From the NCBI GenBank assembly GCA_018696595.1, contig JABHQW010000003.1, positions 32,001 to 96,000 of the forward strand: a stretch of 64,000 nucleotides of DNA, read 5' to 3'. The position numbers and the translations under genes were made by a program. Source of the DNA: Candidatus Woesearchaeota archaeon (GTDB lineage Archaea > Nanobdellota > Nanobdellia > Woesearchaeales > GW2011-AR9). Shown one piece after another: positions 2,274 to 50,100 of this stretch (positions within the stretch are counted from its first letter, which is position 1; the number at the start of each line of letters is the position of its first letter). The notes beneath the pieces are model-generated. The model made no database searches, was not told the DNA's origin, and was given only the letters and a program-made list of their open reading frames with translations.

Positions 2274-2277
2274 AATC

Positions 2278-2290
2278 CGTAAATCTTGCG
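2278..2290. promoter_or_regulatory. Degenerate 13-bp pseudo-palindromic operator upstream of the kinase operon TATA box
   Basis: CGTAAATCTTGCG resembles sites at 14642, 14692, 17482 and 17533. TATA-like TTTATATA lies at about 2306-2313. Confidence 0.4.
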
Positions 2291-2336
2291 TTTTTCTTAG
2301 AAATGTTTATATATTTATTACTTTTAAGTAGAGATT

Positions 2337-4763
2337 ATGGCGTCTGGCACTAAATTTGATGATGAATTTGATAATATTTTTTCTTTAGATGATCCTATTA
2401 CGGATGATTTGGAAGAAATACTTAATTCTGAAGTAAATCTGAAATTAGCTCCAGAACAAGAGTTAAGATATAAAGAAGTATTAGATGTTACTCAAGTATT
2501 ATCCTTCCCAGATGGTGTAAAAAAAGAATTACCAGATTTTATTAAAAGAATTTTTTCTAATGGGAATTATAATCAGATCTCAAATGTTTGTTTATTAAAC
2601 TCTTTGAGGAATCTTTCTCGGTTCAAAAAAATCGATCCAGAAAGGATCGGAAGAACATTAATTTATGAGTATTTAACTATCACTGAAATTTGTGAAGAAC
2701 AAGAATCAGATAAACCTAATTCTTTTGATGATACTACATCTCTTGAAGATAGATTTTCTGGATTAATAGAATCATTTAATACTTTTAGGGAAAAAAATTA
2801 TTTTTGTAATCAAGAAAGTTTTTTTTCGAGTCTTTATTCTGTTAGAGATATAATTAAAAAATTTTTAACTTTAACTCCTAAAACTTTAGGAAATATTTCT
2901 AAACTGCTTTCTGTCTTTCTTCCATTATCTCCAGAATATCTTCTTGAGAATGATTGGGACACTATCAGAACTTCCAGAGAAGCAATTTCCTATTATTTAT
3001 CAATAGTAAAACAATTAGATGACCCTCAAACAATTAATGCTTTTGAGTCAACATTTGGTTCTTTCCTAAGGGAAAATCCGTCTGGTAACATAGACGAAGT
3101 TGAACGTGAGCTAATAGTTAGGAAAGAGATTGCAGAACTAATTAATCCATTTAGTTCAGAAGCTAAACCTTACTTAATTTATTTCTATAATTATTTATGT
3201 AAAAAGTCTGTTCCTGAAGAGCGTACTTATTTAATTAAAGATAGTACAAAGTTTTTTGATGAAAATTTGCCAAAACTTTTAGATATTAATTCAAAATGTT
3301 ATTATGGGGTATTTATGAGGTTAGCTTTTACTCAATGTTTTAGAAATGATAAACAGGGTTGTGATTTATCAGCTTTGGAAGAAATTTTTAATAAAGATAT
3401 TGATGATGTTTTACCATTATCTAATTTCTTAGATAATTTAAATATTGATTTAAATATAGATCTCTCTGTTGATTCTGTTAATGACCCTGATGATTCTCTT
3501 TTAACTAAATATCAAGATCTAAGACAACCATATGATGAGTTCTGGTTCTTCAATAGTTTATCATTTTATTATTTATCACGTACAGAAAGCGAAAAGAAAC
3601 AATGTTTGTTTGACTTAGAAATCATGAAGCACGACCCTCTTTCTATGTTAATGGCAAATCGCTCTTTGAGTTCCTGGAATCCCAAAGATAAGAATAATAG
3701 AGTTGAGGAAGAACTAAATATTATTGCTTGCTTATATGCAGGTGGTTTTTCTATTGAAGAAAAGATAAAAGCTCATTCTTCTCTAAGCCCTTTCCAAGAC
3801 CCAGAATATAACCAGAAGTTTAGAAGATTACTAGGTAATTTAAATGATATCAATGAGATTTGTGAATGTGCAGAGATTAATATGCAAATTGGTGATTATG
3901 ATGTCATCAGAAGATTAGGCTTTGGATCTGGTGGGTCTGTTTATTTAATCAATTCAAAGAATATGAAACGGAAAAGAGTATTAAAGATAATTAAGGAGGA
4001 GAAACATAGAAAAGAAGAAACTGAACTTATGGCAAGATTGAAAGGAAAAGATCTTGATAACATTGTTCAGATTCACGAGGCTGGAGAGAATATTGCTGTT
4101 GTCGCTGGTGAAGAAAAATACGCGATCGTCATGGAATATATTGATGGACAGACTTTACGTGAATTAGTTGATGCTGGACCACTTTCTAAAGATAAAGTTT
4201 TAGAATATGGGACACAAATATTTAATGGAATCTTAAGCCTACAATCTTATGGTATAACTCATCGAGATTTGAATTTGAAGAATATTAAAGTTAATAGTGA
4301 TGGTGTTGTTAAAATATTAGATCTGGGGATTGCTACTGATGAAAATGAACCTAAAGGAAAAGATGCTAGACGTTTTGGTGTTCCTTCAGATATGAAATCA
4401 AACGATCTTTTTTCCTTAGGTTTAATTCTTTATCAGTTATCTTCTGGTGACCATCTTATCTTAGAAAAGAGGGACAGAAGTAGTTATTCTCATGCAGAAG
4501 AGGTTGCCATACTAAAAGAAAAACTTTATGAAAATAATCAAATAGCATCTTTATATCAAGAGAAAATTTGTGGGAACATCCCAAAAGAGTTACAAGCAAT
4601 AATTTATGCTTGTTTAGAAAATCCTATTGGGAATGTAGAGGATGTTAAAGAAGCATTTGAACAGACAAGAGATGACTTACGTTATTATTTAATGGATAAG
4701 ACTGATTTAATTGCAAGAATCCATGAGCTAGAATCAAAGGATAATCTGGTGATTAAAAAATGA
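2337..4763 (+). CDS. Hanks-type Ser/Thr protein kinase with a large helical N-terminal region
   Basis: C-terminal LGFGSGGSVY, VLKII, HRDLNLKNI, ILDLGIA and DLFSLG motifs. The ~510-aa N-terminus was not recognised. Confidence 0.88.
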   Translation: MASGTKFDDEFDNIFSLDDPITDDLEEILNSEVNLKLAPEQELRYKEVLDVTQVLSFPDGVKKELPDFIKRIFSNGNYNQISNVCLLNSLRNLSRFKKIDPERIGRTLIYEYLTITEICEEQESDKPNSFDDTTSLEDRFSGLIESFNTFREKNYFCNQESFFSSLYSVRDIIKKFLTLTPKTLGNISKLLSVFLPLSPEYLLENDWDTIRTSREAISYYLSIVKQLDDPQTINAFESTFGSFLRENPSGNIDEVERELIVRKEIAELINPFSSEAKPYLIYFYNYLCKKSVPEERTYLIKDSTKFFDENLPKLLDINSKCYYGVFMRLAFTQCFRNDKQGCDLSALEEIFNKDIDDVLPLSNFLDNLNIDLNIDLSVDSVNDPDDSLLTKYQDLRQPYDEFWFFNSLSFYYLSRTESEKKQCLFDLEIMKHDPLSMLMANRSLSSWNPKDKNNRVEEELNIIACLYAGGFSIEEKIKAHSSLSPFQDPEYNQKFRRLLGNLNDINEICECAEINMQIGDYDVIRRLGFGSGGSVYLINSKNMKRKRVLKIIKEEKHRKEETELMARLKGKDLDNIVQIHEAGENIAVVAGEEKYAIVMEYIDGQTLRELVDAGPLSKDKVLEYGTQIFNGILSLQSYGITHRDLNLKNIKVNSDGVVKILDLGIATDENEPKGKDARRFGVPSDMKSNDLFSLGLILYQLSSGDHLILEKRDRSSYSHAEEVAILKEKLYENNQIASLYQEKICGNIPKELQAIIYACLENPIGNVEDVKEAFEQTRDDLRYYLMDKTDLIARIHELESKDNLVIKK

Positions 4764-5560
4764 GATTTGAAGAGATTGACATAACTCATCTTTTCCTAGA
4801 TGTTGATGGGACGCTATTTAATAAGAAAAAAGAATATATTCTGGGAAGCGGTTCAATAGAAGATGTTCATGAGTTTTTTCGTTATGTTACATTTACTGAA
4901 GCATTGAAACAAGGCAATGAAATTAATGAAAATGAATTAATTGAAAAGGTTGTTGAAGAATATCATTGTAGGATTCATGAAAATAATCTTCTAGAATATA
5001 CTGCACGATTTTCAAATAATCTAAAACGTCATTATCATGATTTAGTAAGAAAACATGGTTCAAATGGGAAAGTATTCACCCATGAGTTTGAAACTAGTCC
5101 TGGCTTTTTCGCAAAGATAGTTGGAAAGACAGATTTTTCTTCAATACTAACAAAAGACCATAAATTGATTGATACTATTGATACAATTAAGCAGAAGGGC
5201 ATACAGTTGGGTTTGTTAACCACAGAAAGATATGATACAGTAACAACTATTGCAAATGTTCTTGGTTTAAGTTTGGATGATTTTGTAGTTAATACTGGTG
5301 CTGAATATCCAATTCTTTGTTCAGAGAACGTAAAAGAAAAGAAACCTTCACTAGAAGGATTCCAAAAAATAATCACAATAACAAATGCTACTCCTAATAA
5401 AATAGCTTATGTTGGCGATTCTTTAACTAAAGATGTTCATCCTCCATTATCATTGGGAATGAATGCAATCCATGTTACTTGGAAAGATCACCCTCTTAGA
5501 ATTAGAGGAGATTATGTTGAGATGCCAACAATATATCATTTGAGTGAGGTGTTTAAATGA
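4760..5560 (+). CDS. HAD-superfamily hydrolase (phosphatase)
   Basis: Motif I LDVDGT and motif IV YVGDSLTKD. ATGA overlap with the upstream kinase. Confidence 0.88.
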   Translation: MRFEEIDITHLFLDVDGTLFNKKKEYILGSGSIEDVHEFFRYVTFTEALKQGNEINENELIEKVVEEYHCRIHENNLLEYTARFSNNLKRHYHDLVRKHGSNGKVFTHEFETSPGFFAKIVGKTDFSSILTKDHKLIDTIDTIKQKGIQLGLLTTERYDTVTTIANVLGLSLDDFVVNTGAEYPILCSENVKEKKPSLEGFQKIITITNATPNKIAYVGDSLTKDVHPPLSLGMNAIHVTWKDHPLRIRGDYVEMPTIYHLSEVFK

Positions 5561-6975
5561 TAAGAACAATTATTCAAATTGCTAAATCAGCTGGGGAAAT
5601 CATTGAACAAGAAAAAAAAAATAAACATGAGGTTATGCTTAAAGAAGATAACAGCGTAGTTACAACAGTAGATTTGAAAGTTAACAATTTTATTATTTCT
5701 GAACTAAAGAAGTATTTCCCTGATAAAGAAATAATCAGTGAGGAACTAATCAGTATACCTACAAAAGATTCTTTCTTTATTATTGATCCGTTGGATGGGA
5801 CACAGGAATTCTTGAATTGCATTGATGAACCAGAAAAGTACACCGAGTATGCTGTCCAGATTGCTTATGTGGAAGACGGTTGTCCCATAATGGGTGTTGT
5901 TTATCAACCCGCTATTGATAAATTATATTACGCTGTTAAAAACAAAGGTGCTTTTTTGCAACAAGGAACTAGTATTAAGAGAATTTTTACAAAACAATCT
6001 AATCGTGTTGTTGTGGGTAGATATAATATTGATGAGGATCTAATAAAAATATTAAGCTCGAAATTCTCAAAAACCCTTTCCGAAGTTAGTCAGGTAGGAA
6101 GTTTCGGAATAAAAGTATGCCAAGTTGCTGAAGGTAAGTACAATTCTTTTGTTCATACTAATTTTGATAATAATAAAATTCATGCTTCTTTATGGGACTC
6201 TTCTGCTCCAGACATTATTCTTCGCGAAGCAGGTGGAAGATCATTTGAGATGAAAACTTTAGTGCCCATAGATTATTCTTCTAATAAAATAAACCTTACT
6301 CAGGGGTATATTGCCACTTCAAATAAAAGTAAAGTCATAATTGTTTTTGATGTTGATGGGGTTTTAGGAAACTTTGAGATCCTTAAAGAAAAGAGAGATG
6401 TTGCCCATATTACTGCAGTAGCTAATAATAATCTGATTAGTTTCCAAGAGGCTAAAAAGCTATTTATTACCACTAGGGAAAAACTAAGGGCTGTAGATCA
6501 GTTTTCTACTATTGATACAATGTTTCATCTTGGTATTAGTAAAGAAGAATTTTATAATATAATGAATTCAGTACCTATTGAAGGAGGGATTAGTTGTAAT
6601 CCTAACGCTAAAACAATATTACAGTACTTATCCAAAAATTGTACTTTAGTTGCTTTAACAAATACTCCTTACTTAGCAAATATTGAAACTTTAGACTATT
6701 TAAGATTATTAGAATATTTTGATAAAGTATATTCTATCGATAAATATAATTTTATTAAACCATCAGTGGAAATATTCGAGAGAATAAAGATGGATTTTGG
6801 GGCTGAGCAAGGCTATTCTATTGGTGATAATGCCCATAAAGATTTACTTCCTGCTAAGGAAGCAGGATTTAAAACTATTTTATTTGGAGATAAAAAAAAA
6901 GTAAGTGGTGTTGACTATAAAATAGATGATTTGGCTAAATTAAAAGAAATAATTAATCTAAAAAATGACAATTGA
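5557..6975 (+). CDS. CysQ/inositol-monophosphatase family domain fused to a C-terminal HAD hydrolase
   Basis: SEE, IIDPLDGTQEF and WDSSA (IMPase/CysQ), followed by FDVDGV, KPS and IGDNAHKD (HAD). ATGA overlap with the previous gene. Confidence 0.88.
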   Translation: MIRTIIQIAKSAGEIIEQEKKNKHEVMLKEDNSVVTTVDLKVNNFIISELKKYFPDKEIISEELISIPTKDSFFIIDPLDGTQEFLNCIDEPEKYTEYAVQIAYVEDGCPIMGVVYQPAIDKLYYAVKNKGAFLQQGTSIKRIFTKQSNRVVVGRYNIDEDLIKILSSKFSKTLSEVSQVGSFGIKVCQVAEGKYNSFVHTNFDNNKIHASLWDSSAPDIILREAGGRSFEMKTLVPIDYSSNKINLTQGYIATSNKSKVIIVFDVDGVLGNFEILKEKRDVAHITAVANNNLISFQEAKKLFITTREKLRAVDQFSTIDTMFHLGISKEEFYNIMNSVPIEGGISCNPNAKTILQYLSKNCTLVALTNTPYLANIETLDYLRLLEYFDKVYSIDKYNFIKPSVEIFERIKMDFGAEQGYSIGDNAHKDLLPAKEAGFKTILFGDKKKVSGVDYKIDDLAKLKEIINLKNDN

Positions 6976-9655
6976 TGATAAAATTGAAGAAGAGTACGAT
7001 GTAAGTAAAGAATGTGATCTTAAAAGTATAATTCCAGAAGTTGAAGAACATAAGAAGAAACTTTCTCAAGAGCAATTAGGGGAATTTAATTCTTTAGAAT
7101 CCAAATTAAAGCCATTGACCATTAATAATCCAGATCATGCTCATCCGGGCAACTCAGAAGCTTTAAGAAAAATGGGCAATATTTTTTATGAGAATGAAAT
7201 ATCTAATGATATTGCTTCTCAGTATTATCATCTTGCTTTTGAAGAATATTCTTCTGATGCGAGAATACTTTGTAATCTCGGAATTATTGCTAAAGAAAAA
7301 AATGACTATGAAAAAGCAAAAGAATATTTATGGAAATCTCTTAATTGGAATAAAAGTTTGTGGTTAGCTCATGATGCTCTTACTGATATTCTTAGTGATG
7401 AAAATGATACAACTGGAATGGTCACTTGGATCAATAAATTTATTAATTCTGTTGGAGGTAAGGGGAGTATAATTCAACTAGCGGGGATGGTAGAAGATTC
7501 AGATTATGAAGAAGATAATATTCTTTATCAATCATATGACGCATTAGAGGTTCTTGTTTCTGCAGATTATGGTGAAAGATTTGATGGTTACGATGTTTGC
7601 AAATTAATCCTTTCGGGGATAAATCCTCAACTTGCTAGTCAATATAATGGTCGTTTTGGTGCTTTGGATATTGTTAATTTACATAAAGCAGATTGTTCTC
7701 CAGAAAAAGCTAACACTTACGACGTTCGTTTTGGAGGCTTAGATATTGCACATCTAAAAATGGCAAGAGTAAAGAATGAAGAAGCAATTATTTATCCTGA
7801 ACATTTTGATGGTAGTTGTATATCTGCTTTAGTTCATGAGAATATTTCTCCAGAAGTTGCTGGTTCATATGGCGAGCCTTTAATGCCAACATACTTGAAT
7901 AAAGGATATTCTGGAACAAGCATTACCTGTTTTGTAAAATATGGTCTTAATGATAAAGATGTTAAAGATTATGGTGAACTTCCAAGTTCGGTAATTTGTT
8001 TATTGGTTGAAAATGGAATCTCAGCTGAACAATATAGACCTTATGGAGAAAAATTTGTAGATACAGAAAAGTGGCATAAAGTAGATTGGAAATCTTTAAT
8101 AAAATTGATTAATCGTGCTAAAAACTATGAAGAGATTGCTGAATATGATTCTTCTTTGGGTCTTGATGATATTATTCAACTAAATTACAATTCAATATCC
8201 TCTTCACTTGCTAACCAATATCACGGATTTAACGGTTCACAGATTTCTCGTTTAGTTGAATACAAGATTGAACCAGAAAAGATTCCTGAATATTCAGAAC
8301 GATTTGATAAAGAGGATATATCGTGGTTAGCTAGTTTTAATGTTTCTTCAGAATTTGCAGAAAAATTTGATCCAAGGTTTAAAGGTAATGATATTATCAA
8401 TTTAAAAGATGTGTATTCGCCAGAGATCACTCAATACAATGCTAAAATTCCTGCTATTATAATTAGGGCATTAATTAAAAATAATGTTTCACCTGAAAAA
8501 GCTGAGGAATATTTGAAACATTGGAACGAGTGGGAATTAATTGGGGTTTTTGATGTTCCTTTTGATATTGCTCGTAAATATAAAGAAAATAATGGTTTGC
8601 ACATTGGAAAAATGTATCGAAGCGGAATTATGCCTGAAGAAGCAAACAAATTTGATGATCGTTTTAGATCTGATGGTATTGTAGATTGTATTGAAGCAAA
8701 AGTTAGTCCAGAAATAGCTAATAGTTATCATGGGCGTTTTGATGAATATGGTGTTAGGCAATTAGTTGAGTTTAATTGTGATCCAAAGATTGCTAATACT
8801 TACGATGAGAGATTAAATGCTGAAGCTATTTTATTATTATCTAGCGTTGGTATTTTCCCAGGAATATTTAGTGAGAATTCTGAGATTTATTACAGTCTTT
8901 TAAAAGATATCACTCACTTTGAAGAAGATGATACTGATGATGATCAAGATAGTAATCTTTTAGGTGTTGGTTCACAAGGGATTGTGATTCTAAAGAATGA
9001 AAGTGCTTGGAAGTTTAGTCAGGATATTGATTATGAATATTCATTACTTAAAATGCTGGAGAATCCTAAGAATGTTATAGGGATAAAAAATAAACCAAAA
9101 AAAAGAGTTGCCTTGGAATTAGAATATGTTTCGGGCGACTCACTAAAAACGATTATGGGGAAAAAACTATTATCATTAGATAAAACATACCATTACTCAT
9201 TGGAAATATTTAACGGTCTTCAAGAACTTCGTCAAGCTGGGATTTATCAGCATCGTGATATTCGTCCAGCAAATATTATGGTTGACGAAGAAAAAGAAAG
9301 AGCAATAATAATTGATTTAGGAATTGCTACAACAGACCCATTAGATTTACCTAAAGATAACCGTAGATATGGCGGTCCAAACGATTTAGTTTCTCTTGGA
9401 CAAGTGATGTATAAAATGGCTACTGGCGAACATATTTTTGCTGAATCTGAATCTATGGAAAGAACTATTTACGCAGACAAGTTAAAAGATCATCGTGATT
9501 GGATTTACGAGGAAGATAAGAGATTAGGACCATATCTTAGAATAGTTAATGAAACTGTTACAGATGATAAAGTGGCAGATTTAATAAAATTATGTCTGAC
9601 GGCAAAAGGTACAGAAGAAGATTATCAGAGATTAGAAGAGAGATTTGCAACATAA
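6965..9655 (+). CDS. TPR + ~25-aa repeat + Ser/Thr protein kinase
   Basis: TPR-like ALRKMGNIFYE...ILCNLGIIAKEKNDYEKAKEYLWKSL, then PE.A..Y..RF repeats, then the kinase motifs LGVGSQGIV, WKFS, HRDIRPANI and IIDLGIA. Confidence 0.88.
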   Translation: MTIDDKIEEEYDVSKECDLKSIIPEVEEHKKKLSQEQLGEFNSLESKLKPLTINNPDHAHPGNSEALRKMGNIFYENEISNDIASQYYHLAFEEYSSDARILCNLGIIAKEKNDYEKAKEYLWKSLNWNKSLWLAHDALTDILSDENDTTGMVTWINKFINSVGGKGSIIQLAGMVEDSDYEEDNILYQSYDALEVLVSADYGERFDGYDVCKLILSGINPQLASQYNGRFGALDIVNLHKADCSPEKANTYDVRFGGLDIAHLKMARVKNEEAIIYPEHFDGSCISALVHENISPEVAGSYGEPLMPTYLNKGYSGTSITCFVKYGLNDKDVKDYGELPSSVICLLVENGISAEQYRPYGEKFVDTEKWHKVDWKSLIKLINRAKNYEEIAEYDSSLGLDDIIQLNYNSISSSLANQYHGFNGSQISRLVEYKIEPEKIPEYSERFDKEDISWLASFNVSSEFAEKFDPRFKGNDIINLKDVYSPEITQYNAKIPAIIIRALIKNNVSPEKAEEYLKHWNEWELIGVFDVPFDIARKYKENNGLHIGKMYRSGIMPEEANKFDDRFRSDGIVDCIEAKVSPEIANSYHGRFDEYGVRQLVEFNCDPKIANTYDERLNAEAILLLSSVGIFPGIFSENSEIYYSLLKDITHFEEDDTDDDQDSNLLGVGSQGIVILKNESAWKFSQDIDYEYSLLKMLENPKNVIGIKNKPKKRVALELEYVSGDSLKTIMGKKLLSLDKTYHYSLEIFNGLQELRQAGIYQHRDIRPANIMVDEEKERAIIIDLGIATTDPLDLPKDNRRYGGPNDLVSLGQVMYKMATGEHIFAESESMERTIYADKLKDHRDWIYEEDKRLGPYLRIVNETVTDDKVADLIKLCLTAKGTEEDYQRLEERFAT

Positions 9656-11395
9656 AAATGAAACTAGAAAGAATACTTGCGGAAACAGAACTGGCAAGAG
9701 ATTATCGAAGAATAATTAGATCGAATGATTTCTTAGGGGATAAAATAAAAGAAGCAGTTCAGAAAATTAGGGGTATTCATCAAGTTAAACGTTATTTAGG
9801 ACATGTTGATTTATTATCAAAAAAGTGGAGTGCTTATTTAGATGATCCTCCTGTTAATTATGGGATCGCTTTTGCTCATTATGCTTGGTTTAGTATGGAT
9901 TTGCCTTTTTACACTAGGGCTTTTTCTAAAGTAGAAGAAGAGTTTTCAGATGTCATTTCAGATATAATCCTTCAAGTGAATAAGAAAACTAATCATCTTT
10001 CTAAATTAGCTTACGTTTTTGAAACGCCGTATAATAAAAATTGGGGTAATACTTTGCCATATAAAAAACAACGTCAACAATACTTTTCTCTTCTACATAA
10101 ACTACAAGCTGTTGATCCAGATGTTATTGCCGATGCACATTATCTTCTTTCTTGTTTAATAAAGAATCAAGAAAAAGAATATCCTTTAGAAAAAATAGTG
10201 TCAAATATTTGTGAACTGGACAAATTGGGTGATGACCCCCATCTGAATTCATCCTCTGTCCAAGGGATGCCAGAAACTGTTAGATCACTTGCACAAACAT
10301 ATATTGAAGGTCTAAATTTTTTGGCAGGGCCAACATATATTAAAGAATTTGAAGAAGATTTAAATTTAAAAGACATACTTAATGACGATACAGTTGATTT
10401 ACATTTTGAAAAAGTAATCGCTTTTGCTAAAAAATGTGACTCTGTTTGTAATCAACGAAATCAATTAACAAACAACATAGATTATCTTGAATCTGTAGAA
10501 TATAAAGAGATAGATTCAAAAGCTGATAAGTACAATGGAATTGTTGGTGCTTTTGCAATGGGCCTTCCAATAATACAACAATTAAATCCAAGTGCCGTTG
10601 ATGATTATGTCCATACTGCTTCTGAAATGATAATTCGTGCTGTTGATATTAACAAAGTGGAATTAGCATTCAAAAGTTTAATTACCCATATGGGAGGTTA
10701 TAAATTAATATCTACGGGTATACGTTCAATTGTTGTTTTTTCTGGTGATTCTATCAGTAAGTTTTCATCAGACATCTCATATGAAGCAGAATTACATCAT
10801 AAATTAGAAAATCCAATAAATGTTGTTTCGGCAGTAAAAGAAAGCAATACTGAAATAACTTTAGAATTAAAATATATTCATGGTCACTCACTTGAAGAAT
10901 TAATGGATATTAATCAATTATCTTTAGATTTAATAAAGAAATATTCTTCAGGTATTTTCAACGGTCTTCAAGAACTTCGCCAAGTAGGGATTTATCAGCA
11001 TCGTGATATTCGTCCAGCAAATATTATGGTTGACGAAGAAAAAGAAAGAGCAATAATAATTGATTTAGGAATTGCTACAACAGACCCATTAGACCCCCCT
11101 AAAGATAACCGCAGATATGGCGGCCCAAACGATTTAGTTTCTCTCGGACAAGTGATGTATAAGATGGCTACTGGCGAACATATTTTTGCTGAATCTGAAT
11201 CTATGGAAAGAACGATTTACGCAGACGAGTTAAAAGATCATCGTGATTGGATTTATGGGGGAGATGAAAGGTTAGATCCATATCTTAGAATAGTTAATGA
11301 AACTGTTACAGATGATAAAGTGGCAGATTTAATAAAATTATGTCTGACGGCAAAAGGTACAGAAGAAGATTATCAGAGATTAGAGGAGAGGTTTG
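9212..11395 (+). repeat. 436-bp direct repeat (9212-9647 and 10960-11395) encoding the kinase C-lobes
   Basis: Manual alignment shows no indels and 23 mismatches (~95% identity). Confidence 0.95.
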
Positions 11396-11409
11396 AAAAT
11401 ATTGTTTGA
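9658..11409 (+). CDS. Ser/Thr protein kinase with an unrelated N-terminal domain and a degenerate Gly-rich loop
   Basis: ATG at 9658 lies two bases after the upstream stop and is preferred over the track start at 9592. HRDIRPANI and DLG are intact; the G-loop reads ISTGIRSIV. Confidence 0.85.
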   Translation: MKLERILAETELARDYRRIIRSNDFLGDKIKEAVQKIRGIHQVKRYLGHVDLLSKKWSAYLDDPPVNYGIAFAHYAWFSMDLPFYTRAFSKVEEEFSDVISDIILQVNKKTNHLSKLAYVFETPYNKNWGNTLPYKKQRQQYFSLLHKLQAVDPDVIADAHYLLSCLIKNQEKEYPLEKIVSNICELDKLGDDPHLNSSSVQGMPETVRSLAQTYIEGLNFLAGPTYIKEFEEDLNLKDILNDDTVDLHFEKVIAFAKKCDSVCNQRNQLTNNIDYLESVEYKEIDSKADKYNGIVGAFAMGLPIIQQLNPSAVDDYVHTASEMIIRAVDINKVELAFKSLITHMGGYKLISTGIRSIVVFSGDSISKFSSDISYEAELHHKLENPINVVSAVKESNTEITLELKYIHGHSLEELMDINQLSLDLIKKYSSGIFNGLQELRQVGIYQHRDIRPANIMVDEEKERAIIIDLGIATTDPLDPPKDNRRYGGPNDLVSLGQVMYKMATGEHIFAESESMERTIYADELKDHRDWIYGGDERLDPYLRIVNETVTDDKVADLIKLCLTAKGTEEDYQRLEERFENIV

Positions 11410-11416
11410 AGATAGA

Positions 11417-12367
11417 CTAATGTGATTCGCTTTTATTTTTTCCTAGTTCTCTAATAATAGTGGCTCTAACAAAATCATTGATACAATCTAAAAATGGACT
11501 CACTTCATTAATTACTTTTAATTCATTTAAACCAAAATTAATATTTTCCATTCTTTTTATCAACTCGTACCTCTTATTGGTTAAGTTATGTTCCAAACTA
11601 CCTTTATGTAAGTGAAGAAAGTGTTCATAGACTAGTTCAAATATTTCTTGAAGAATATTTTTAACTCTTAGTGTGCAACCAAACCTAGCAGTTTTTTCTA
11701 CTAAATGTCTATATTTATCCATCATTTTATCAACAATCAGATATAAAGTGAATAATTGTGCCTTTTCTTCTTGACTTTTATCTGACTTATCTAAGACTCT
11801 CAGAAAATAAGTGATAAACTTACAAACATTATCATGGTAATCATAAGCATTTTCAGCATATAAATGGAAATCTTTTCCTATACTTTTTAAATATTCTTCC
11901 ATTACTTCTTTAAAAAGAAAAAATATTCTTTTTTCAATTATATTAATATTTTCTTCCTTATCTGTTAGGAAACAACGGAGTTCAGTCCTGTTCTTGGTTT
12001 GAGAAACTATTTCCATGCCAATGAAACGGGTAATCATTTTTTTTTTGATTAAAGATAAAATGTTAATGTTTTTATTATTTTTACCATCATAGATCTCAGG
12101 TTTAGAATACATAAGTGTGATTTTATTATAGTTGGTAATATATAATGTCTCCAAATATCTTCCCAGGATATGTTTATTAAAACCACTAATATCCAGCGTA
12201 ATCTTTTTTTCTTTCTCTTTTCTTTCTCCTAAAGAGAAATTAATTTCTTTTTCCCCTAAAGAGACGTCTAATTCATCTCCCTTAGAAACATTATTCTTTT
12301 TAACCCACTTGTTAGGCAAGGAAACCATTAACGTACTAGGACCAATTTGAGCTACTTTTCGCTTCAT
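11417..12367 (-). CDS. AbrB/SpoVT-domain PhoU-like regulator
   Basis: N-terminus RKVAQIGPSTLMVSLPNKWVKKNNVSKGDEL followed by helical PhoU-like repeats, typical of archaeal phosphate uptake regulators. Confidence 0.8.
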   Translation of the reverse strand: MKRKVAQIGPSTLMVSLPNKWVKKNNVSKGDELDVSLGEKEINFSLGERKEKEKKITLDISGFNKHILGRYLETLYITNYNKITLMYSKPEIYDGKNNKNINILSLIKKKMITRFIGMEIVSQTKNRTELRCFLTDKEENINIIEKRIFFLFKEVMEEYLKSIGKDFHLYAENAYDYHDNVCKFITYFLRVLDKSDKSQEEKAQLFTLYLIVDKMMDKYRHLVEKTARFGCTLRVKNILQEIFELVYEHFLHLHKGSLEHNLTNKRYELIKRMENINFGLNELKVINEVSPFLDCINDFVRATIIRELGKNKSESH

Positions 12368-12482
12368 AATTCCAATAATCTCGGATAATATTTAAACTTT
12401 TCGGAAAATTATAATATTATAATGCATTATTATAATATAATCATTAAATATATATTCCTCTTTAAGTTTACTAATAGTTAAG

Positions 12483-12500
12483 AACGGAACAATTTCCGTT
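12483..12500. promoter_or_regulatory. 18-bp palindrome AACGGAA-caat-TTCCGTT just before the GGAGG RBS of ORF 12514
   Basis: Perfect 7-bp arms read directly from the sequence. Confidence 0.6.
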
Positions 12501-12513
12501 TGGAGGCAAAAAA

Positions 12514-12936
12514 ATGAAAAAACATATGGTTGAAAAAGATGGGATTTATGGTGCATTAATTATGGCTGCAAAGAACCCTAATACAGATTCTTCAAAGAAT
12601 CTAGCAAAAGCGGGATTGAACTTTCAGTATAAGAAAAATCAAATCATGGAACAATATGTAATACCTGTTAATGGTGGGATATATCAAGTTCAAGTATTAG
12701 ATTTCTTAGGTGATCAATATGGACTTGAAGGAGTAATGGCTATGGGTGTAAATACTAATGGGGATGAAATGAACAATGTGTTGGATTTTCTCTTAACTAC
12801 AGCAGGGATTGTACCTTTAGATCAAGAAGTATTTAATGGCAATCCATTAAAAGAAAAATACACTGAAGTACTTGAAAAAATGGTTACTGATTATGCAAAT
12901 ACTTTGGTAATTAATACACCAGACACAGTGAATTAA
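12514..12936 (+). CDS. Hypothetical protein
   Basis: GGAGG RBS and a 1-bp gap to the downstream Lrp gene. No recognisable domain. Confidence 0.7.
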   Translation: MKKHMVEKDGIYGALIMAAKNPNTDSSKNLAKAGLNFQYKKNQIMEQYVIPVNGGIYQVQVLDFLGDQYGLEGVMAMGVNTNGDEMNNVLDFLLTTAGIVPLDQEVFNGNPLKEKYTEVLEKMVTDYANTLVINTPDTVN

Positions 12937-12937
12937 A

Positions 12938-13375
12938 ATGAATCCAAAAACCTTACAACTCTTGATGCATTTAAGAGAGAACTCTAGAGAGAAGCTTACA
13001 AGTATTAGTAAAAAAACTAATATCCCGATCTCTACCCTCTTTGATCTGTTGAAAGAGTTGCAGGGGGGTTTAATTCTCAAAAGTACTGTTTTATTAGATT
13101 ATTCTAAGTTGGGTTATCATGCTAGAGCAAAAGTGTTTCTGAAAGTAAGTAATGAGAATAAAGAGAAATTAAAAAACCACTTGAACTTAAATCCCAATGT
13201 GAACACAATTTACAAAATTAATAATGGGTGGAGTTTTTTAATTGAAACTGTACATAAGAATATTAAAGAATTAGATATTTTTCTGGAGAAGTTAGAAGAT
13301 AATTATAATATTGAAAACAAACAAATTCATTATTTAATTGATGAAGTTAAAAGAGAAGGTTTTGTGGTTGATTGA
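12938..13375 (+). CDS. Lrp/AsnC family transcriptional regulator
   Basis: N-terminal HTH (LRENSREKLTSISKKTNIPISTL), LDYSKLGY linker and a RAM-like C-terminus. Confidence 0.9.
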   Translation: MNPKTLQLLMHLRENSREKLTSISKKTNIPISTLFDLLKELQGGLILKSTVLLDYSKLGYHARAKVFLKVSNENKEKLKNHLNLNPNVNTIYKINNGWSFLIETVHKNIKELDIFLEKLEDNYNIENKQIHYLIDEVKREGFVVD

Positions 13376-31633: not shown

Positions 31634-32056
31634 ATGAAAATATATAACGGAGAAGGAATGATACTTGGAAGAATGGCTGCAGTTATTGCTAAAGCATCCT
31701 TGCTTGGAGAAGAAGTAAACGTAGTTAACTGTGAGAAAATGGTAGTTAGTGGAAGAAAAACTAATACTGTTGCTCAAGAAAAGCAGAAAAGAGATCGAAA
31801 AGGATATCCGTTAAAAAGTGCAAAGTTCTCAAAATTACCTGATAGATATGTTAGAAGAACTATTCGAGGAATGGTTCCTTGGAAACAAGCTAGGGGAAAA
31901 GAAGCATATAAAAGAGTTATGTGTTATATTGGAATTCCAGCAGGCTTAGCTGATAAAGAAATGATTACTATTAAAGAAGCTTCAATGAAAAAATTACCTA
32001 CCTTAAAATATATGACTGTTGGAGAAGTTTGTAAAAGGTTAGGTGGAAAGTTATAA
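31634..32056 (+). CDS. rpl13: 50S ribosomal protein L13 (uL13)
   Basis: ILGRMAAVIAK and RRTIRGMVPWKQARG. Confidence 0.96.
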   Translation: MKIYNGEGMILGRMAAVIAKASLLGEEVNVVNCEKMVVSGRKTNTVAQEKQKRDRKGYPLKSAKFSKLPDRYVRRTIRGMVPWKQARGKEAYKRVMCYIGIPAGLADKEMITIKEASMKKLPTLKYMTVGEVCKRLGGKL

Positions 32057-44665: not shown

Positions 44666-47050
44666 ATGAAAAGATCACTATTAGAACGGTTAGTTGGAGT
44701 AACTAAAGAAACTGTTAGAAATCTTAAGAAACCAGCATCAATGCTTGCATTAGGATTGGCTTTATCTTATGCTGCTCCCGCTTGTAGTTTTACTGTGGAT
44801 AGGCCAGAATTTGTTCCCCAAGATACTCAAGAAGATGTTTACGAAGATCAAAAAGATATCTCTGGTGATAATTCCATTGATGGTTCTGGCGATATAAATC
44901 CTTTTGATAATAAACCAGATTGTGAAAATCCACAGACTTTCTACTTTGATAATGATGGAGATACTTTTGGAGATGCATATGAAACTGAAACATTCTGTTC
45001 AGAGAAAGAAGCTGAAATTAACGGTTTTGTTCCAAATCCTTTAGATTGTGATGATGAAGTAAATTATATTCATCCTGATGCAGAAGAACTTTGTGATGGT
45101 TTTGATAACAATTGTGATTTTAATATCGATGAAGGTTTAGAAATTCTTGCACAATGTTATAAAGATTTTGATGATGATGGTTTTGGCGTTGAAGATGATA
45201 CCTTTGGAACTTGTATGTCAAGTTGTGGTGAAGGTTATGCAAAACATTCCGGTACAAAACCCTTTGATTGTGCAGACGATAATGATAAAGTTTTTCCAGG
45301 AGCAGAAGAAGTTTGTGATTTAATTGATAATAATTGTGAGAATGGAAACAATGAAGGTTTTGAAAATTTAGATTATTATCCAGACGTAGATGGAGATAAT
45401 GCTGGTAATATGTATGCAGAAGCAATTAAGTTCTGTAAAGAACCAACTGCTGAAATGAAACCTGCTGGTATGGAAGATGTTGAATATGTTCCAAATGCAA
45501 CAGATTGTGAAGATGGGGATCCAACTATAAATTTGAATCATCCCGAGATTTGTGACGGAAAAGATAATAATTGTAATGATGAAATTGATGATGGTGCTCC
45601 ATTATTAGATTATTTTAAAGATAATGATGGTGATGGTTACGGAAACGAAGCAGACGGAACTTGGGAAGGTTGTGGTTCAAAGCCGGGTTATGTTACTAAA
45701 GGTGGAGATTGTAATAATGAAAATAATGCAATTCATCCATTTGCAGAAGAAATTTGTAACGGTTTAGACGATGATTGTAATAATTTAATTGACTTAGAAG
45801 ATGGGTTGGCTTCAATTATTTGTTATGTTGACGACGATCAAGATGGATTTGGTTTGTCTGATTACTCTTTAGAAACTTGTGAAACAGAATGCCCTCCGTT
45901 TACATCTAAAACTGCAGGAGATTGTTACGACTTAAGTGATGCAATTCATCCTTTTGCAGAAGAAATTTGTAATACTTTAGATGATAATTGTAATGGTTTA
46001 GTTGACGATGGTTTAGAAGATGTTCAAGCATGTGATGTTTATAATAACAATATGAATGGGTTGCAAACAATTGATTGTAATGCTGAAACTGGTGTTTACG
46101 AACCTACTAGTGAATGTGATGATCCTGATGAATGTGCCCCTCAACCACAATTAAATTTGAAACCTTGTTCAACAGATGTTGGAGTTTGTGAAGAGGGTCA
46201 TGAGAAATATGATTGTGAACAGGACGATGAAGGAAATTATATTGAAGTTCTTGTTGAAGAATGTGATGGAGTTATGCCAGGAGTAGAAGATTTAGGATTA
46301 GAAGGATGTACTGTTGAAGATCTTAATGGTTTAGATGATGATTGTAACGGATTTGTCGACGAAATATGTAATGCTTATATCCCTGCTGGAATATTTAATA
46401 TGGGTTGTAATCCTACTTTTAACATTGGTTGTAATGGAGATAATGCAGATCATGCAGTTATGTTAGATGATTATGAAATTGGGATGCATGAAGTTACTAA
46501 TGCACAATACTTAGCTTGTATTCAAGCTTTAGCTTGTTCAGATTCTGCAGGTGGTTCTAAAGTAAATGATCCCGCTTATGCAAATCATCCAGTAACAAAT
46601 GTAACTTGGCAACAAGCAAAAGATTATTGTGAACACGCCGGTGGGAATTTACCTACAGAAGCACAATGGGAAAAAGCTGCTCGTGGTGAAGATAGCTGGC
46701 AAATGTTTCCTTGGGGAGATAATTTACCAAATTGTAATTTAGTAAATTATAACATGTGTGTGGGCGAAACTACAGAAGTTGACGATTATGAAGATGGCGT
46801 TTCTCCATTTGGTTTGTTTAATATGAGTGGAAATGTTATGGAATGGGTTGGAGATTGGTCTAGTGCTTATCAACAAGGTTTCCAAGAGAATCCTACTGGT
46901 CCAGAAGATGGGGTTCAGAAGGTTGTTCGGAGTTCAAATTATTCAGACAGTGAAGAATTTGTTACAACTTATCAAAGAAATGGTATAGGTCCCAGTATGA
47001 ACAAAGCTTATATTGGTTTACGTTGTGTTACAGAACCAACTGATGAATAA
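44666..47050 (+). CDS. Exported protein with MopE-like metal-binding repeats and a C-terminal FGE-sulfatase (CLec-like) domain
   Basis: Signal/lipoprotein-like N-terminus (LALSYAAPAC), five DC.D....IHP.A.E.C...DNNC repeats, then FNMG, HEVTNAQY, LPTEAQWEKAARG, MSGNVMEW and GLRCV. Confidence 0.9.
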   Translation: MKRSLLERLVGVTKETVRNLKKPASMLALGLALSYAAPACSFTVDRPEFVPQDTQEDVYEDQKDISGDNSIDGSGDINPFDNKPDCENPQTFYFDNDGDTFGDAYETETFCSEKEAEINGFVPNPLDCDDEVNYIHPDAEELCDGFDNNCDFNIDEGLEILAQCYKDFDDDGFGVEDDTFGTCMSSCGEGYAKHSGTKPFDCADDNDKVFPGAEEVCDLIDNNCENGNNEGFENLDYYPDVDGDNAGNMYAEAIKFCKEPTAEMKPAGMEDVEYVPNATDCEDGDPTINLNHPEICDGKDNNCNDEIDDGAPLLDYFKDNDGDGYGNEADGTWEGCGSKPGYVTKGGDCNNENNAIHPFAEEICNGLDDDCNNLIDLEDGLASIICYVDDDQDGFGLSDYSLETCETECPPFTSKTAGDCYDLSDAIHPFAEEICNTLDDNCNGLVDDGLEDVQACDVYNNNMNGLQTIDCNAETGVYEPTSECDDPDECAPQPQLNLKPCSTDVGVCEEGHEKYDCEQDDEGNYIEVLVEECDGVMPGVEDLGLEGCTVEDLNGLDDDCNGFVDEICNAYIPAGIFNMGCNPTFNIGCNGDNADHAVMLDDYEIGMHEVTNAQYLACIQALACSDSAGGSKVNDPAYANHPVTNVTWQQAKDYCEHAGGNLPTEAQWEKAARGEDSWQMFPWGDNLPNCNLVNYNMCVGETTEVDDYEDGVSPFGLFNMSGNVMEWVGDWSSAYQQGFQENPTGPEDGVQKVVRSSNYSDSEEFVTTYQRNGIGPSMNKAYIGLRCVTEPTDE

Positions 47051-47122: not shown

Positions 47123-50100
47123 ATGTACTTAGACAAAAAAGGGGAAGTTGTAGTAGTAGTTATTATAGCTCTTGCTGTAATTATTTCTAGTTTTTTCGCT
47201 ATAAATCAAATTTCTGATGGTAATATGGTTACTGGGGCAGCAATTGGTTTAGGTAATATTAAAACTCAAGCATCTTGTGGGGATACAATTACTTCTAGCA
47301 CTACTTTAACAGAAAACTTAGGACCTTGCTCAAACTTAGATGGGTTGATAATTGGAGCAAATAATGTTGTTTTAGATTGTGCTGGTTACAAAATTATTGG
47401 AGAAAATGATTTAAATAAATACGGGGTTAAAAACCCTCAATACAATCGAATTACTATCAAGAACTGTTCCATTACAAACTTTTCTATCGGTATCAGTTTT
47501 AGCAGAGACTCATTACTATCAACAATAATCAACAACACTTTATTCACAAACACAGATGGTATTTATATCTTTAATTCAAATACTACAACAATAATAAATA
47601 ACACCATTAAGAATCAAACACAGCACGGTCTTTGGTTAGTTGGAGTTGGAGATGGCTTAATAATAAATAACCTAATAGAAAACAATGGAATTAGTGACTT
47701 AACTACAAAGAACGGAATAAATATAGACTTTGGAGATTATTCTTCAAATTTAACTTTTATTAACAACACACTTTACAACAACTCAATAGCAATAGAAGCA
47801 AGTGTAACAGAGACAAGATTCTATAACAACAAATTCAATTACACGCCAATTATAAATGGTAACGCAGTAACTATCTGGAACACAACATATGATAACACAA
47901 CAAAGAACATTGTCTACGGAATCTCAACCGGTGGTAACTGGTGGCATAATTATACTGGAAACGATACTAACGATGATGGTATTGGAGATGATGCAAACTA
48001 TTCTATTACTGCCACTTACAAAGATGAAAGACCGTTAGTTTCTGTTTATCAATTTACGAAACCTAATAGTGCAGCAACATTCGCCGATAACTTAAACATC
48101 AATAGCACTTTTAACTCAACTAACCCAATGACATCTGGAAGTAACCATTCAACAAGGCAGAATATTACTTTCTTTAATAGTACAACTAGAAATAAATATT
48201 TTACAGTTGAAGCATACTTTAATCAGACAGTTGGCCTAGGTTCTATTAGATTCTATAGGAACCTAACTGCAGAAAATAATGTAGTTGCCATTGCTGTTGA
48301 TATCTCTTCTGCTACTGGAACAGCACCTACACACACCACTTATCTTTTCAATAATAATTCCGGAGATGGGGTTACAGTTTGTTCTTTTGCAGAAACTTTA
48401 ACAGCTACAAATCTTAGTTGTGAAAACCGAACCCAGATAACATCACAAAACATTACAGACGCAGTTTCTATAAAAAACGTTACAGTTAGTTTAGATGGAG
48501 ATTATTACAAGATAGAAAATCTTTCAGGGACAGGTGTTCTTCTAGGATCAAACACTAGCCTAGTTATCTGGGATGAGACCGATACAAACGTACGTTATGG
48601 AGATGCATTAAGAAACCCAGATGCTAACACTTCGTTCTTTGCAAATTATACCAGTTCTTTAGGAACTGCAATTACTAATGGGAATTGTACAATTACTTAT
48701 AATAATGCCTCCGCTTTCCAAATGCCCTATGATTCTGCTAAAGAACTATTTGTTGCTAATGCTAGCAACTTTAGTGGAGGGATTGAAGAATGGAATGTAA
48801 CTTGTTTTGCTTTATACCGCCACACCATGTTCTTAAACGATAGTGTTAACATATCCACTTGTCCCCGTTATGTTAACAATGATTATACATTAACTATTGA
48901 CCACACCGCAACAACTGATTGTTTAATTATTAATGCTAGTAACGTTACAATTAACGGTGCGGGATATTCTATTAATGGAAATGGAACTGGGACAGGGATT
49001 TTGTCAACTGCTTTTAGAAACATAACAATTCAAAACATTAATGTTTTCAATTTTAGTTATGCAGTATTTCTTAATCTTTCAGATAACGTAACAATCAGTA
49101 ACAGCAACTTAACTGAATTTATAAATTATGGTTTACTTTTAACAAATACAAATAATTCTTACTTTTCAGATCTTAATATCACAGGAAACCAAGGAGTTTC
49201 ATCTGCACTTTATGTTCTTTATAATTCCACTAACAATAACTTAACAAATTGTGAACTTTCATCCACTAATCCAGATGTGGCGGCTAATCATCAAGGACAA
49301 TTATATTTACTTAATAGCACTTTTAATCGAAACAATATGCTTGTTACATCTATAGGAAATGTTTTTGTGCAATGGTATTTACAATACAACATTACTGCTG
49401 CCGACGGTTCACCAATCCCTTCTGCTATAGTTAATATTACTTACAATTCTACTATCACAAATTTCTCATTCCCTGTAGATGATGAAAGTTTAACTACAAA
49501 AATTATTGCTACTGAATTCTTTAAAAATTCTACAAATACAACTTATGAAACTCCAACCAGAGCAATCGCTTATGCTTTTGGATTCTTACAAACTATAAAT
49601 TATACAAACTTAACTCAAACTAATTCTACCTTAAAACAAATGAACCTTAGTTTAATTCCTCAAGCACCTAACAACGATTGTGGTACATATACAACTGATA
49701 TTGTTTTCTCAGGTGGAATTACATATGCTAATTCTACTATTTGTATAACTGTAGGTGCCGATAATATTGTCATTAATGGAAATGGATCAGTAATTTATGG
49801 TAATCATAGTTCTACCGCCTATGGACTTTATGCTTTATTGAAAGATAATGTCACGATACACAATCTCACATTAATCAATTTTACTAATTATCAAGTTTAT
49901 TTAGCAGGTTCAAATAATTTCACTTTTTACAATTCTTCATTTCGTGCTAATGACACTAATAATTTAGGATTCTTTTTGTATTATTCAGATGACAATAATA
50001 TTACCAACAATACAATCTTTACAGAAACCACAAATGGTTATGGTTCTTATTCATATCGTTCTCATAGAAACCTTTTTTCCAAAAATAGAATCACAACAAA

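Follow-up and report, generated by a model that had tools for sequence, protein, structure and literature searches.

A kinase array convergent with an AbrB/PhoU regulator: a conserved DPANN signalling cassette in a Woesearchaeota genome

What do three protein kinase genes do when they are packed into one operon with two phosphatase genes in a small archaeal genome? The question is raised by positions 2337 to 11409 of the 64,000-nucleotide (nt) stretch analyzed here (the window; positions 32,001 to 96,000 of contig JABHQW010000003.1, assembly GCA_018696595.1, from a Candidatus Woesearchaeota archaeon), in which a first-pass annotation had seen a self-contained phospho-signalling system with opposing phosphatases, serving either defence or host manipulation. 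We find that this region is one elaborate copy of a conserved, DPANN-specific signalling cassette whose core consists of a kinase array, an AbrB/PhoU regulator and an Lrp-type regulator. As to function, the reading that we prefer, at a probability of roughly 40%, is that sensor kinases with dedicated AbrB/PhoU and Lrp regulators control enzymes of nucleotide or phosphate recycling.

The description of the host as a reduced-genome archaeon holds, as the genome measures 1.19 Mb at 97% completeness, with a low guanine-plus-cytosine (GC) content, and homologues of the window's proteins are named Nanoarchaeota, Woesearchaeota or DPANN archaea. Five genes follow one another on the plus strand: the kinase gene K1 (2337-4763), a HAD gene (4760-5560), a CysQ/IMPase-HAD fusion gene (5557-6975), and the kinase genes K2 (6965-9655) and K3 (9658-11409, alternative start at 9592). 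They were delimited from the list of open reading frames (ORFs) and assigned by Pfam (Pkinase for the kinases, Inositol_P and HAD_2 for the fusion) or, for HAD, by Pfam and NCBIfam together. Read directly from the sequence, the K1/HAD and HAD/fusion junctions are both ATGA overlaps and the fusion/K2 junction is an 11-nt overlap; K2 and K3 are separated by 2 nt if K3 starts at ATG 9658, which we prefer, or overlap by 64 nt if it starts at ATG 9592. ORFs, domain scores and junctions thus bear out the tightly joined five-gene operon of the first-pass annotation. Upstream, a putative operon promoter region (2274-2336, plus strand) carries the TATA-like sequence TTTATATA at 2306-2313, 24-31 nt 5' of the K1 ATG. 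It also holds, at 2278-2290 and with one mismatch, a copy of the 13-base-pair (bp) Lrp-like motif CGKAA-N3-WTCCG; a scan with this motif gave 10 matches against 3.5 expected, a weak excess that was equaled or exceeded in 2 of 100 shuffles. Three of the four Hanks-type kinases of the whole genome sit in this operon, the fusion is the only IMPase-domain match found when the genome is searched with the fusion's own sequence, and the arrangement recurs in other genomes. The clustering of kinase and phosphatase genes is therefore not due to chance.

Are these genes likely to encode working enzymes? Judged from their sequences, all six catalytic domains of the operon carry intact catalytic motifs. 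The kinases score 90.2 (K1), 59.7 (K2) and 54.5 bits (K3) against Pkinase PF00069, whose cut-off is 31.7 bits. An alignment of 16 type-A kinases, the clade to which K2 and K3 belong, shows as invariant the Gly of the G-loop, the ATP-binding Lys368 (the VAIK Lys), Glu376 of helix alphaC, His448 and Asp450 of HRD, the catalytic Asn455, Asp469 of DLG and the Asp of subdomain IX, and K1 too has the full set of catalytic residues. Two motifs depart from the usual form, with DLG replacing DFG and HRDxR replacing HRDxK; the subdomain IX DxxSxG is present. Subdomain IX typically marks a true protein kinase, as distinct from the small-molecule kinases that share the fold. On these motifs, K1, K2 and K3 all look active.

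Each kinase also has its own large N-terminal region, as had been noted at first sight: a comparison of the three regions by BLASTP gave no match below an E value of 0.5. K1 is a soluble Hanks-type kinase of 808 amino acids (aa) with its kinase domain at about aa 517-778, and its residues 1-510, searched alone, found no relative among 5.8 billion proteins and no usable Atlas match. K2 (896 aa; type-A kinase domain at aa 655-896) has a TPR near aa 99-130 and at least 10 copies of a 25-aa repeat in three blocks (aa 199-270, 389-486 and 557-631), a repeat that is also present in kinases from other genomes. K3 (583 aa from ATG 9658, 605 aa from ATG 9592; type-A kinase domain at aa 340-583) has a helical N terminus unrelated to those of the other two. 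The K2 and K3 kinase domains have a sharp internal boundary, with 95% protein identity in the C-lobe against 35% in the N-lobe. The C-lobe block at 9209-9654, on the plus strand, matches 10956-11401 in K3 over 447 nt at 94.2% DNA identity (blastn), which points to a recent duplication or gene conversion. Across genomes, the kinases form three clades, namely, type A (K2 and K3), the K1 type (K1, G692_Kb, G680_Kb and G427_K; labels beginning with G are our genome handles) and a divergent type, and arrays often mix them. Duplicates confined to a single genome occur here (G000) and in G654 and G593, and the sequences indicate that the arrays expand through local duplication. The type-A family comprises 86 protein clusters; all that are named come from DPANN archaea, and their annotation goes no further than "protein kinase" or "hypothetical."

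Convergent with the array lies a gene on the minus strand (11417-12367) that encodes a 316-aa AbrB/PhoU regulator, recognized through a Pfam MazE/AbrB match (26 bits), an AF2 model and a structure search. Its domains are AbrB/SpoVT (aa 1-50), a small alpha/beta domain (aa 52-134) and a PhoU-like six-helix bundle (aa 136-311); the AF2 model (pLDDT 80) places the six-helix bundle at the C terminus. In a VIA search of 48,161 chains, the six best matches were all PhoU (Z 15.2-17.7, root mean square deviation 2.6-3.4 Å over 168-177 residues), and the next unrelated row had a Z of 13.0. Foldseek also puts PhoU first, weakly (E 0.04). Pfam PhoU (PF01895) gave no match to the regulator at E 1, and the regulator profile run against PDB sequences returned designed coiled coils only. 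A paralogue in the same genome, 24% identical to the regulator, has a weak PF01895 match at 21.7 bits against the cut-off of 23.5. The predicted structure thus assigns the C-terminal part of the regulator to the PhoU fold. In the regulator, T12, S16, S122 and S195 are invariant and are candidate phosphorylation sites. Regulators of the AbrB-PhoU architecture form an archaeal family that has been recognized but little studied, with seven members in Pyrococcus furiosus (PMC6316755).

We inspected 22 loci with orthologues of this regulator, all from the same DPANN order. In 18 of them, one to four kinase or kinase-fold genes converge on the regulator gene, often with overlapping 3' ends, and these loci span many families and GC contents of 0.27-0.49. 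An Lrp-type gene adjoins the AbrB/PhoU orthologue in 14 of the 22. The idea of a phospho-signalling system is borne out to this extent, as a conserved, self-contained cassette that is syntenic across other genera and families; its constant partners, the AbrB/PhoU and Lrp regulators, had been overlooked. A profile of the regulator run on 401 genomes of the order (a tally that takes in 13 unpublished genomes, absent from the locus-level claims) found paralogues in 309, many per genome, and the top subfamily, at 250 bits or more, in about 21.

The phosphatase genes are less constant, with HAD at 8 of the 22 loci and the CysQ-HAD fusion at 5. Where they do occur, their order can recur from genome to genome. 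G482 has four tandem kinases, HAD and CysQ-HAD followed by the convergent regulator, and G439 and G586 have HAD, CysQ-HAD and one kinase followed by the convergent regulator. These three genomes belong to different families and range in GC content from 0.32 to 0.49, and their genes keep overlapping, by 4 nt in G482 and G439 and by 1 nt in G586. The same four elements are split over two short contigs in G529. In G012, of the same family and another genus, HAD and a kinase are followed by a convergent regulator 55% identical to ours, and in G730 HAD stands alone within a four-kinase array. HAD and CysQ also occur as a pair without kinases in G297, and a metagenome scan with the HAD alignment found only two close HAD loci, each with HAD alone and no kinases. 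Synteny in relatives, which had been proposed as a check, therefore holds for the kinases and the regulator, with the phosphatases present in a minority of loci. Given these counts, we regard HAD and CysQ-HAD as an optional, probably metabolic module outside the core of the cassette. In G667 (locus L148, G667:C23, 3025-9589), the HAD part of the fusion occurs by itself and is divergent from the HAD gene, and proteins of 633 and 726 aa occupy the kinases' place, convergent with a distant regulator homologue; we considered these two as kinases and rejected them, as no kinase similarity is detectable.

Is the cassette a recent arrival in this genome? GC content is even across the window, with no anomaly, and the neighbours of the operon are the housekeeping genes lhr, ABCE1 and NIF3. 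The same-genus genomes G001 and G002 have no kinase cluster. In G001 (L118, G001:C41, 14961-18545), lhr is followed by two pyridoxal phosphate (PLP)-enzyme genes that are convergent with another AbrB-PhoU paralogue, with Lrp genes on the flanks; in G002 (L119, G002:C125, 700-1719), one PLP gene follows lhr before the short contig ends. The site downstream of lhr looks like a point at which cassettes are swapped. In G316 (L187, G316:C31, 7479-10787), from another family, lhr is likewise followed, a few genes further on and in the same orientation, by a kinase-regulator cassette, which suggests that this position is ancestral. From the synteny pattern, the lhr position in G316 and the uniform GC content of the window, our reading is that of an old cassette, often lost or replaced, and not of a recent import. 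In three further loci of other genomes (L174, 209-1501; L179, 168-1526; L180, 2442-3572), the tail-to-tail partner of a lower-scoring AbrB-PhoU paralogue is a guanylate-kinase-like P-loop protein or a MurB-like gene. Members of this regulator family seem, in general, to be paired tail-to-tail with a cargo gene.

We turn to the phosphatases and to what they might act on. HAD is a 266-aa HAD-IA protein (PF00702, 49.5 bits) in which the residues of motifs I-IV (DxDxT, S/T, K and GDxxxD), namely, D14, D16, T154, K195, D220 and D225, are invariant among 11 homologues. In its AF2 model (pLDDT 93.8), residues 33-145, between motifs I and II, form a large helical C1 cap. Its nearest structures by Foldseek are PH0253, NANP, XMP phosphatase, the SDT1 nucleotidase and YfnB, that is, small-molecule phosphatases that include several nucleotidases, and a profile search of PDB sequences agrees. 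No protein phosphatase, be it of the FCP/SCP, the Eya or another type, is among its top 50 Foldseek rows, a statement limited to the families listed there. The 472-aa fusion joins a CysQ/IMPase domain (aa 1-250; Inositol_P PF00459 at 152 bits against a cut-off of 27) to a second C1-capped HAD-IA domain (aa 262-465; HAD_2 at 41.8 bits). Among nine fusion homologues, the IMPase motifs (E62/E63, the DPxDGT motif at D77-T82, and W213/D214 of the WD motif) and the HAD residues D265, D267, T368, K401 and D429 are invariant. TIGR01331 CysQ is the best NCBIfam match of the IMPase domain, at 148.4 bits, below the equivalog cut-off of 228.8. The fusion homologues amount to nine protein clusters, all from DPANN metagenome-assembled genomes. 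A scan of genome contigs with the fusion alignment recovered only ordinary bacterial CysQ/IMPase loci, its patterns being generic IMPase motifs, and a class-level sample of 400 genomes contained no fusion, whereas the order-level sample did.

One possibility is that HAD and CysQ-HAD are cognate protein phosphatases that reverse the action of the three kinases, as the first-pass annotation had proposed. The kinase and phosphatase genes are translationally coupled, HAD lies inside kinase arrays in 7 loci, and searches of the genome for PP2C, LMW-PTP and dual-specificity phosphatases came back empty, so that an eraser would otherwise be missing. Both HAD domains, however, have large C1 caps, which in the HAD superfamily close over small substrates, and the nearest HAD structures include no protein phosphatase. 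HAD is also lacking in 14 of the 22 kinase-regulator loci, occurs with CysQ and without kinases in G297 and by itself on the two metagenome contigs, and the genome encodes five metallophosphoesterases elsewhere. We therefore consider a writer/eraser switch unlikely, and the opposing phosphatases of the earlier proposal are not supported. From their C1 caps, HAD and the fusion look instead like small-molecule enzymes, a metabolic cargo co-regulated with the kinases. A plausible chain would lead from a nucleoside 3',5'-bisphosphate to the monophosphate and on to the nucleoside.

If the phosphatases are metabolic, they might have no functional link to the kinases at all and simply form an ordinary metabolic operon that happens to sit among regulatory kinases. 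Most kinase loci lack phosphatases, the HAD-CysQ pair exists on its own, and the genome has no IMPase-domain match besides the fusion in the own-sequence search. Against such an accident, the order HAD, CysQ-HAD, kinase, regulator recurs in G482, G439 and G586 with its overlaps conserved, and HAD is embedded between kinases both in G730 and here. We regard the absence of any link as quite unlikely.

How, then, might the cassette work? In our preferred reading, each kinase's own fast-evolving N-terminal region, whether built of 25-aa repeats, TPR or orphan helices, is probably the sensor of a signal, and the kinases would read intracellular cues. The PhoU-type and Lrp regulators would be their targets or their partners, a link modelled on bacterial PhoU and the sensor kinase PhoR. 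HAD and CysQ-HAD, probably co-transcribed with the kinases, would be the regulated output, stripping phosphate from nucleoside 3',5'-bisphosphates and monophosphates and so feeding nucleotide or phosphate recycling. The tight operon, the TATA-like box upstream, the PhoU fold, the convergence in 18 of 22 loci and the recurring pair of HAD and CysQ-HAD all favor this reading, as do the invariant kinase residues, the Lrp gene adjoining the regulator in 14 loci, the C1 cap and nucleotidase neighbours of HAD, the CysQ match of the IMPase domain and the local growth of the kinase arrays. A prediction of a complex between the K3 kinase domain and the AbrB/PhoU regulator scored 0.00 with no answer returned, and counts neither for nor against. 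No PstB-grade match and no PiT/PHO4 match for phosphate uptake was found in the 97%-complete genome, which also speaks for a role in recycling.

Several points weigh on the other side. The PhoU-type family is large in archaea (PMC6316755) and is paired with unrelated cargo elsewhere, so the regulator may do no more than govern transcription of the adjacent gene, unconnected with phosphate; AbrB-PhoU partners in other loci include the PLP enzymes of G001 and G002 and guanylate-kinase-like genes. The phosphatases are missing from most loci and so are not core, and the fusion, as the sole IMPase match in the genome, may have a housekeeping job. Neither a motif scan nor a half-site survey found an operator shared by the K1 promoter and the regulator promoter.

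A second function that had been proposed is an antiviral defence or toxin switch, in which sensor kinases arrest the cell or block the virus and phosphatases reset or protect it. The distribution is patchy enough to invite this idea (the regulator subfamily is in about 21 of the 401 sampled genomes), same-genus genomes hold another cassette at the same site, and kinase duplication is lineage-specific, with variable repeat sensors. The kinase domains also match the PADLOC models mad6 and PD-T4-6; the match of K1 to PD-T4-6 has an E value of 7e-26, covers the generic kinase domain only and is to a model without a curated cut-off. All such matches are confined to that generic domain, however, and in NCBIfam they fall far below the cut-offs (MADS6, 72.9 against 460 bits; PglW, 60.6 against 990 bits). 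HAD and CysQ-HAD have no PADLOC match, an effector such as a nuclease or a pore is lacking, the neighbours are housekeeping genes, the constant partners are transcription regulators, and GC content is not anomalous. The known kinase defence systems (BREX PglW, MADS mad6, PD-T4-6 and Stk2) share only a Ser/Thr kinase domain with the operon; their partner genes are absent here, with no PglZ or methylase near the operon. We rate defence as rather improbable. A further reading, distinct from defence, is an undescribed archaeal signalling system in which arrays of soluble kinases with rapidly diversifying repeat sensors would detect host or virus cues and, together with the PhoU-fold regulator, adjust through CysQ-HAD and HAD the level of a nucleoside 3',5'-bisphosphate-type metabolite that serves as an intracellular signal; we think of this as a long shot.

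The proposal of host manipulation fares worst. The DPANN lifestyle and the eukaryote-like kinases might suggest secreted effectors that act on the host cell of a symbiont. Yet a membrane-like segment is absent from all six proteins (maximum 19-residue Kyte-Doolittle average of at most 1.64), and the N termini, read directly, are acidic and show no signal peptide. There are no adjacent secretion genes, and the partners are cytoplasmic DNA-binding regulators. Secretion is accordingly very improbable.

The architecture had not been recognized as a named system, and our comparisons likewise found none that matches. For these comparisons, the features of the ArnC/ArnD network, of PknB/PrkC and of the PhoU-PhoR-Pho regulon are taken as general knowledge. 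Hanks-type signalling through Sulfolobus ArnC/ArnD or bacterial PknB/PrkC has the same Pkinase fold, catalytic residues, variable sensors and linked DNA-binding regulators. The kinases here differ in being soluble, with no membrane or PASTA part, in standing in tandem arrays, and in having a short activation segment, a conserved NRRYG and an HRDxRPxN catalytic loop; their linked regulator is AbrB/PhoU and not FHA/vWA or winged helix, and no PP2C/PPP gene is nearby. The bacterial PhoU-PhoR-Pho regulon likewise ties a PhoU-fold protein genetically to sensor kinases, with phosphatases as output. Here, by contrast, the kinases are of the Hanks type and not histidine kinases, PhoU appears fused to an AbrB domain, and our searches found no Pst transporter in the genome. 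CysQ and the HAD-IA nucleotidases (SDT1, YjjG/YfnB and XMP phosphatase) have the same catalytic motifs and folds, whereas the enzyme here scores below the CysQ equivalog cut-off, is an IMPase-HAD fusion and is embedded in a kinase operon. The archaeal AbrB-PhoU family (PMC6316755) has the same architecture, about 310-330 aa, and many paralogues per genome; the subfamily described here (at least 250 bits) is specifically tail-to-tail with kinase genes and is missed by Pfam PhoU.

Beyond the regulator, the divergent intergenic region at 12368-12513 was read directly and included in the half-site survey, and any operator function is putative. It contains the palindrome AACGGAAcaatTTCCGTT at 12483-12500 and, just upstream of the regulator start, two TCGGA sites 20 bp apart (starts at 12381 and 12401, span 12381-12405). 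TCGGA pairs about 20 bp apart also precede the regulator orthologues in G069 and G180, and the pair may be an operator. Among 19 genomes, no operator common to the regulator upstream regions was found. On the plus strand follow an orphan 140-aa gene (12514-12936), which has no Pfam or NCBIfam match and is translationally coupled to the Lrp gene, and the Lrp/AsnC-type regulator itself (Lrp145, 12938-13375; Pfam). The orphan gene thus sits between the AbrB/PhoU regulator and Lrp145; in most other genomes, the Lrp gene directly adjoins the regulator. Elsewhere in the window, a 1835-aa ORF (47123-52630) follows a protein with MopE-repeat and FGE-sulfatase domains (44666-47050).

In the literature that we searched on DPANN and Woesearchaeota kinases and on PhoU with Hanks kinases, we found no paper describing a kinase-AbrB/PhoU cassette. 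To our knowledge, almost nothing has been established about signal transduction in DPANN archaea, most lineages of which have no two-component systems. DPANN cells depend on their hosts for nucleotides and phosphate. With the cassette comes a defined kinase family, 86 protein clusters confined to DPANN archaea, and it bears on whether variable-sensor kinase arrays have their role in regulation or in conflict. The cassette also offers an entry point to the role of archaeal PhoU-type regulators and, as its four parts lend themselves to separate expression and assay, to how DPANN cells sense their own state or their host.

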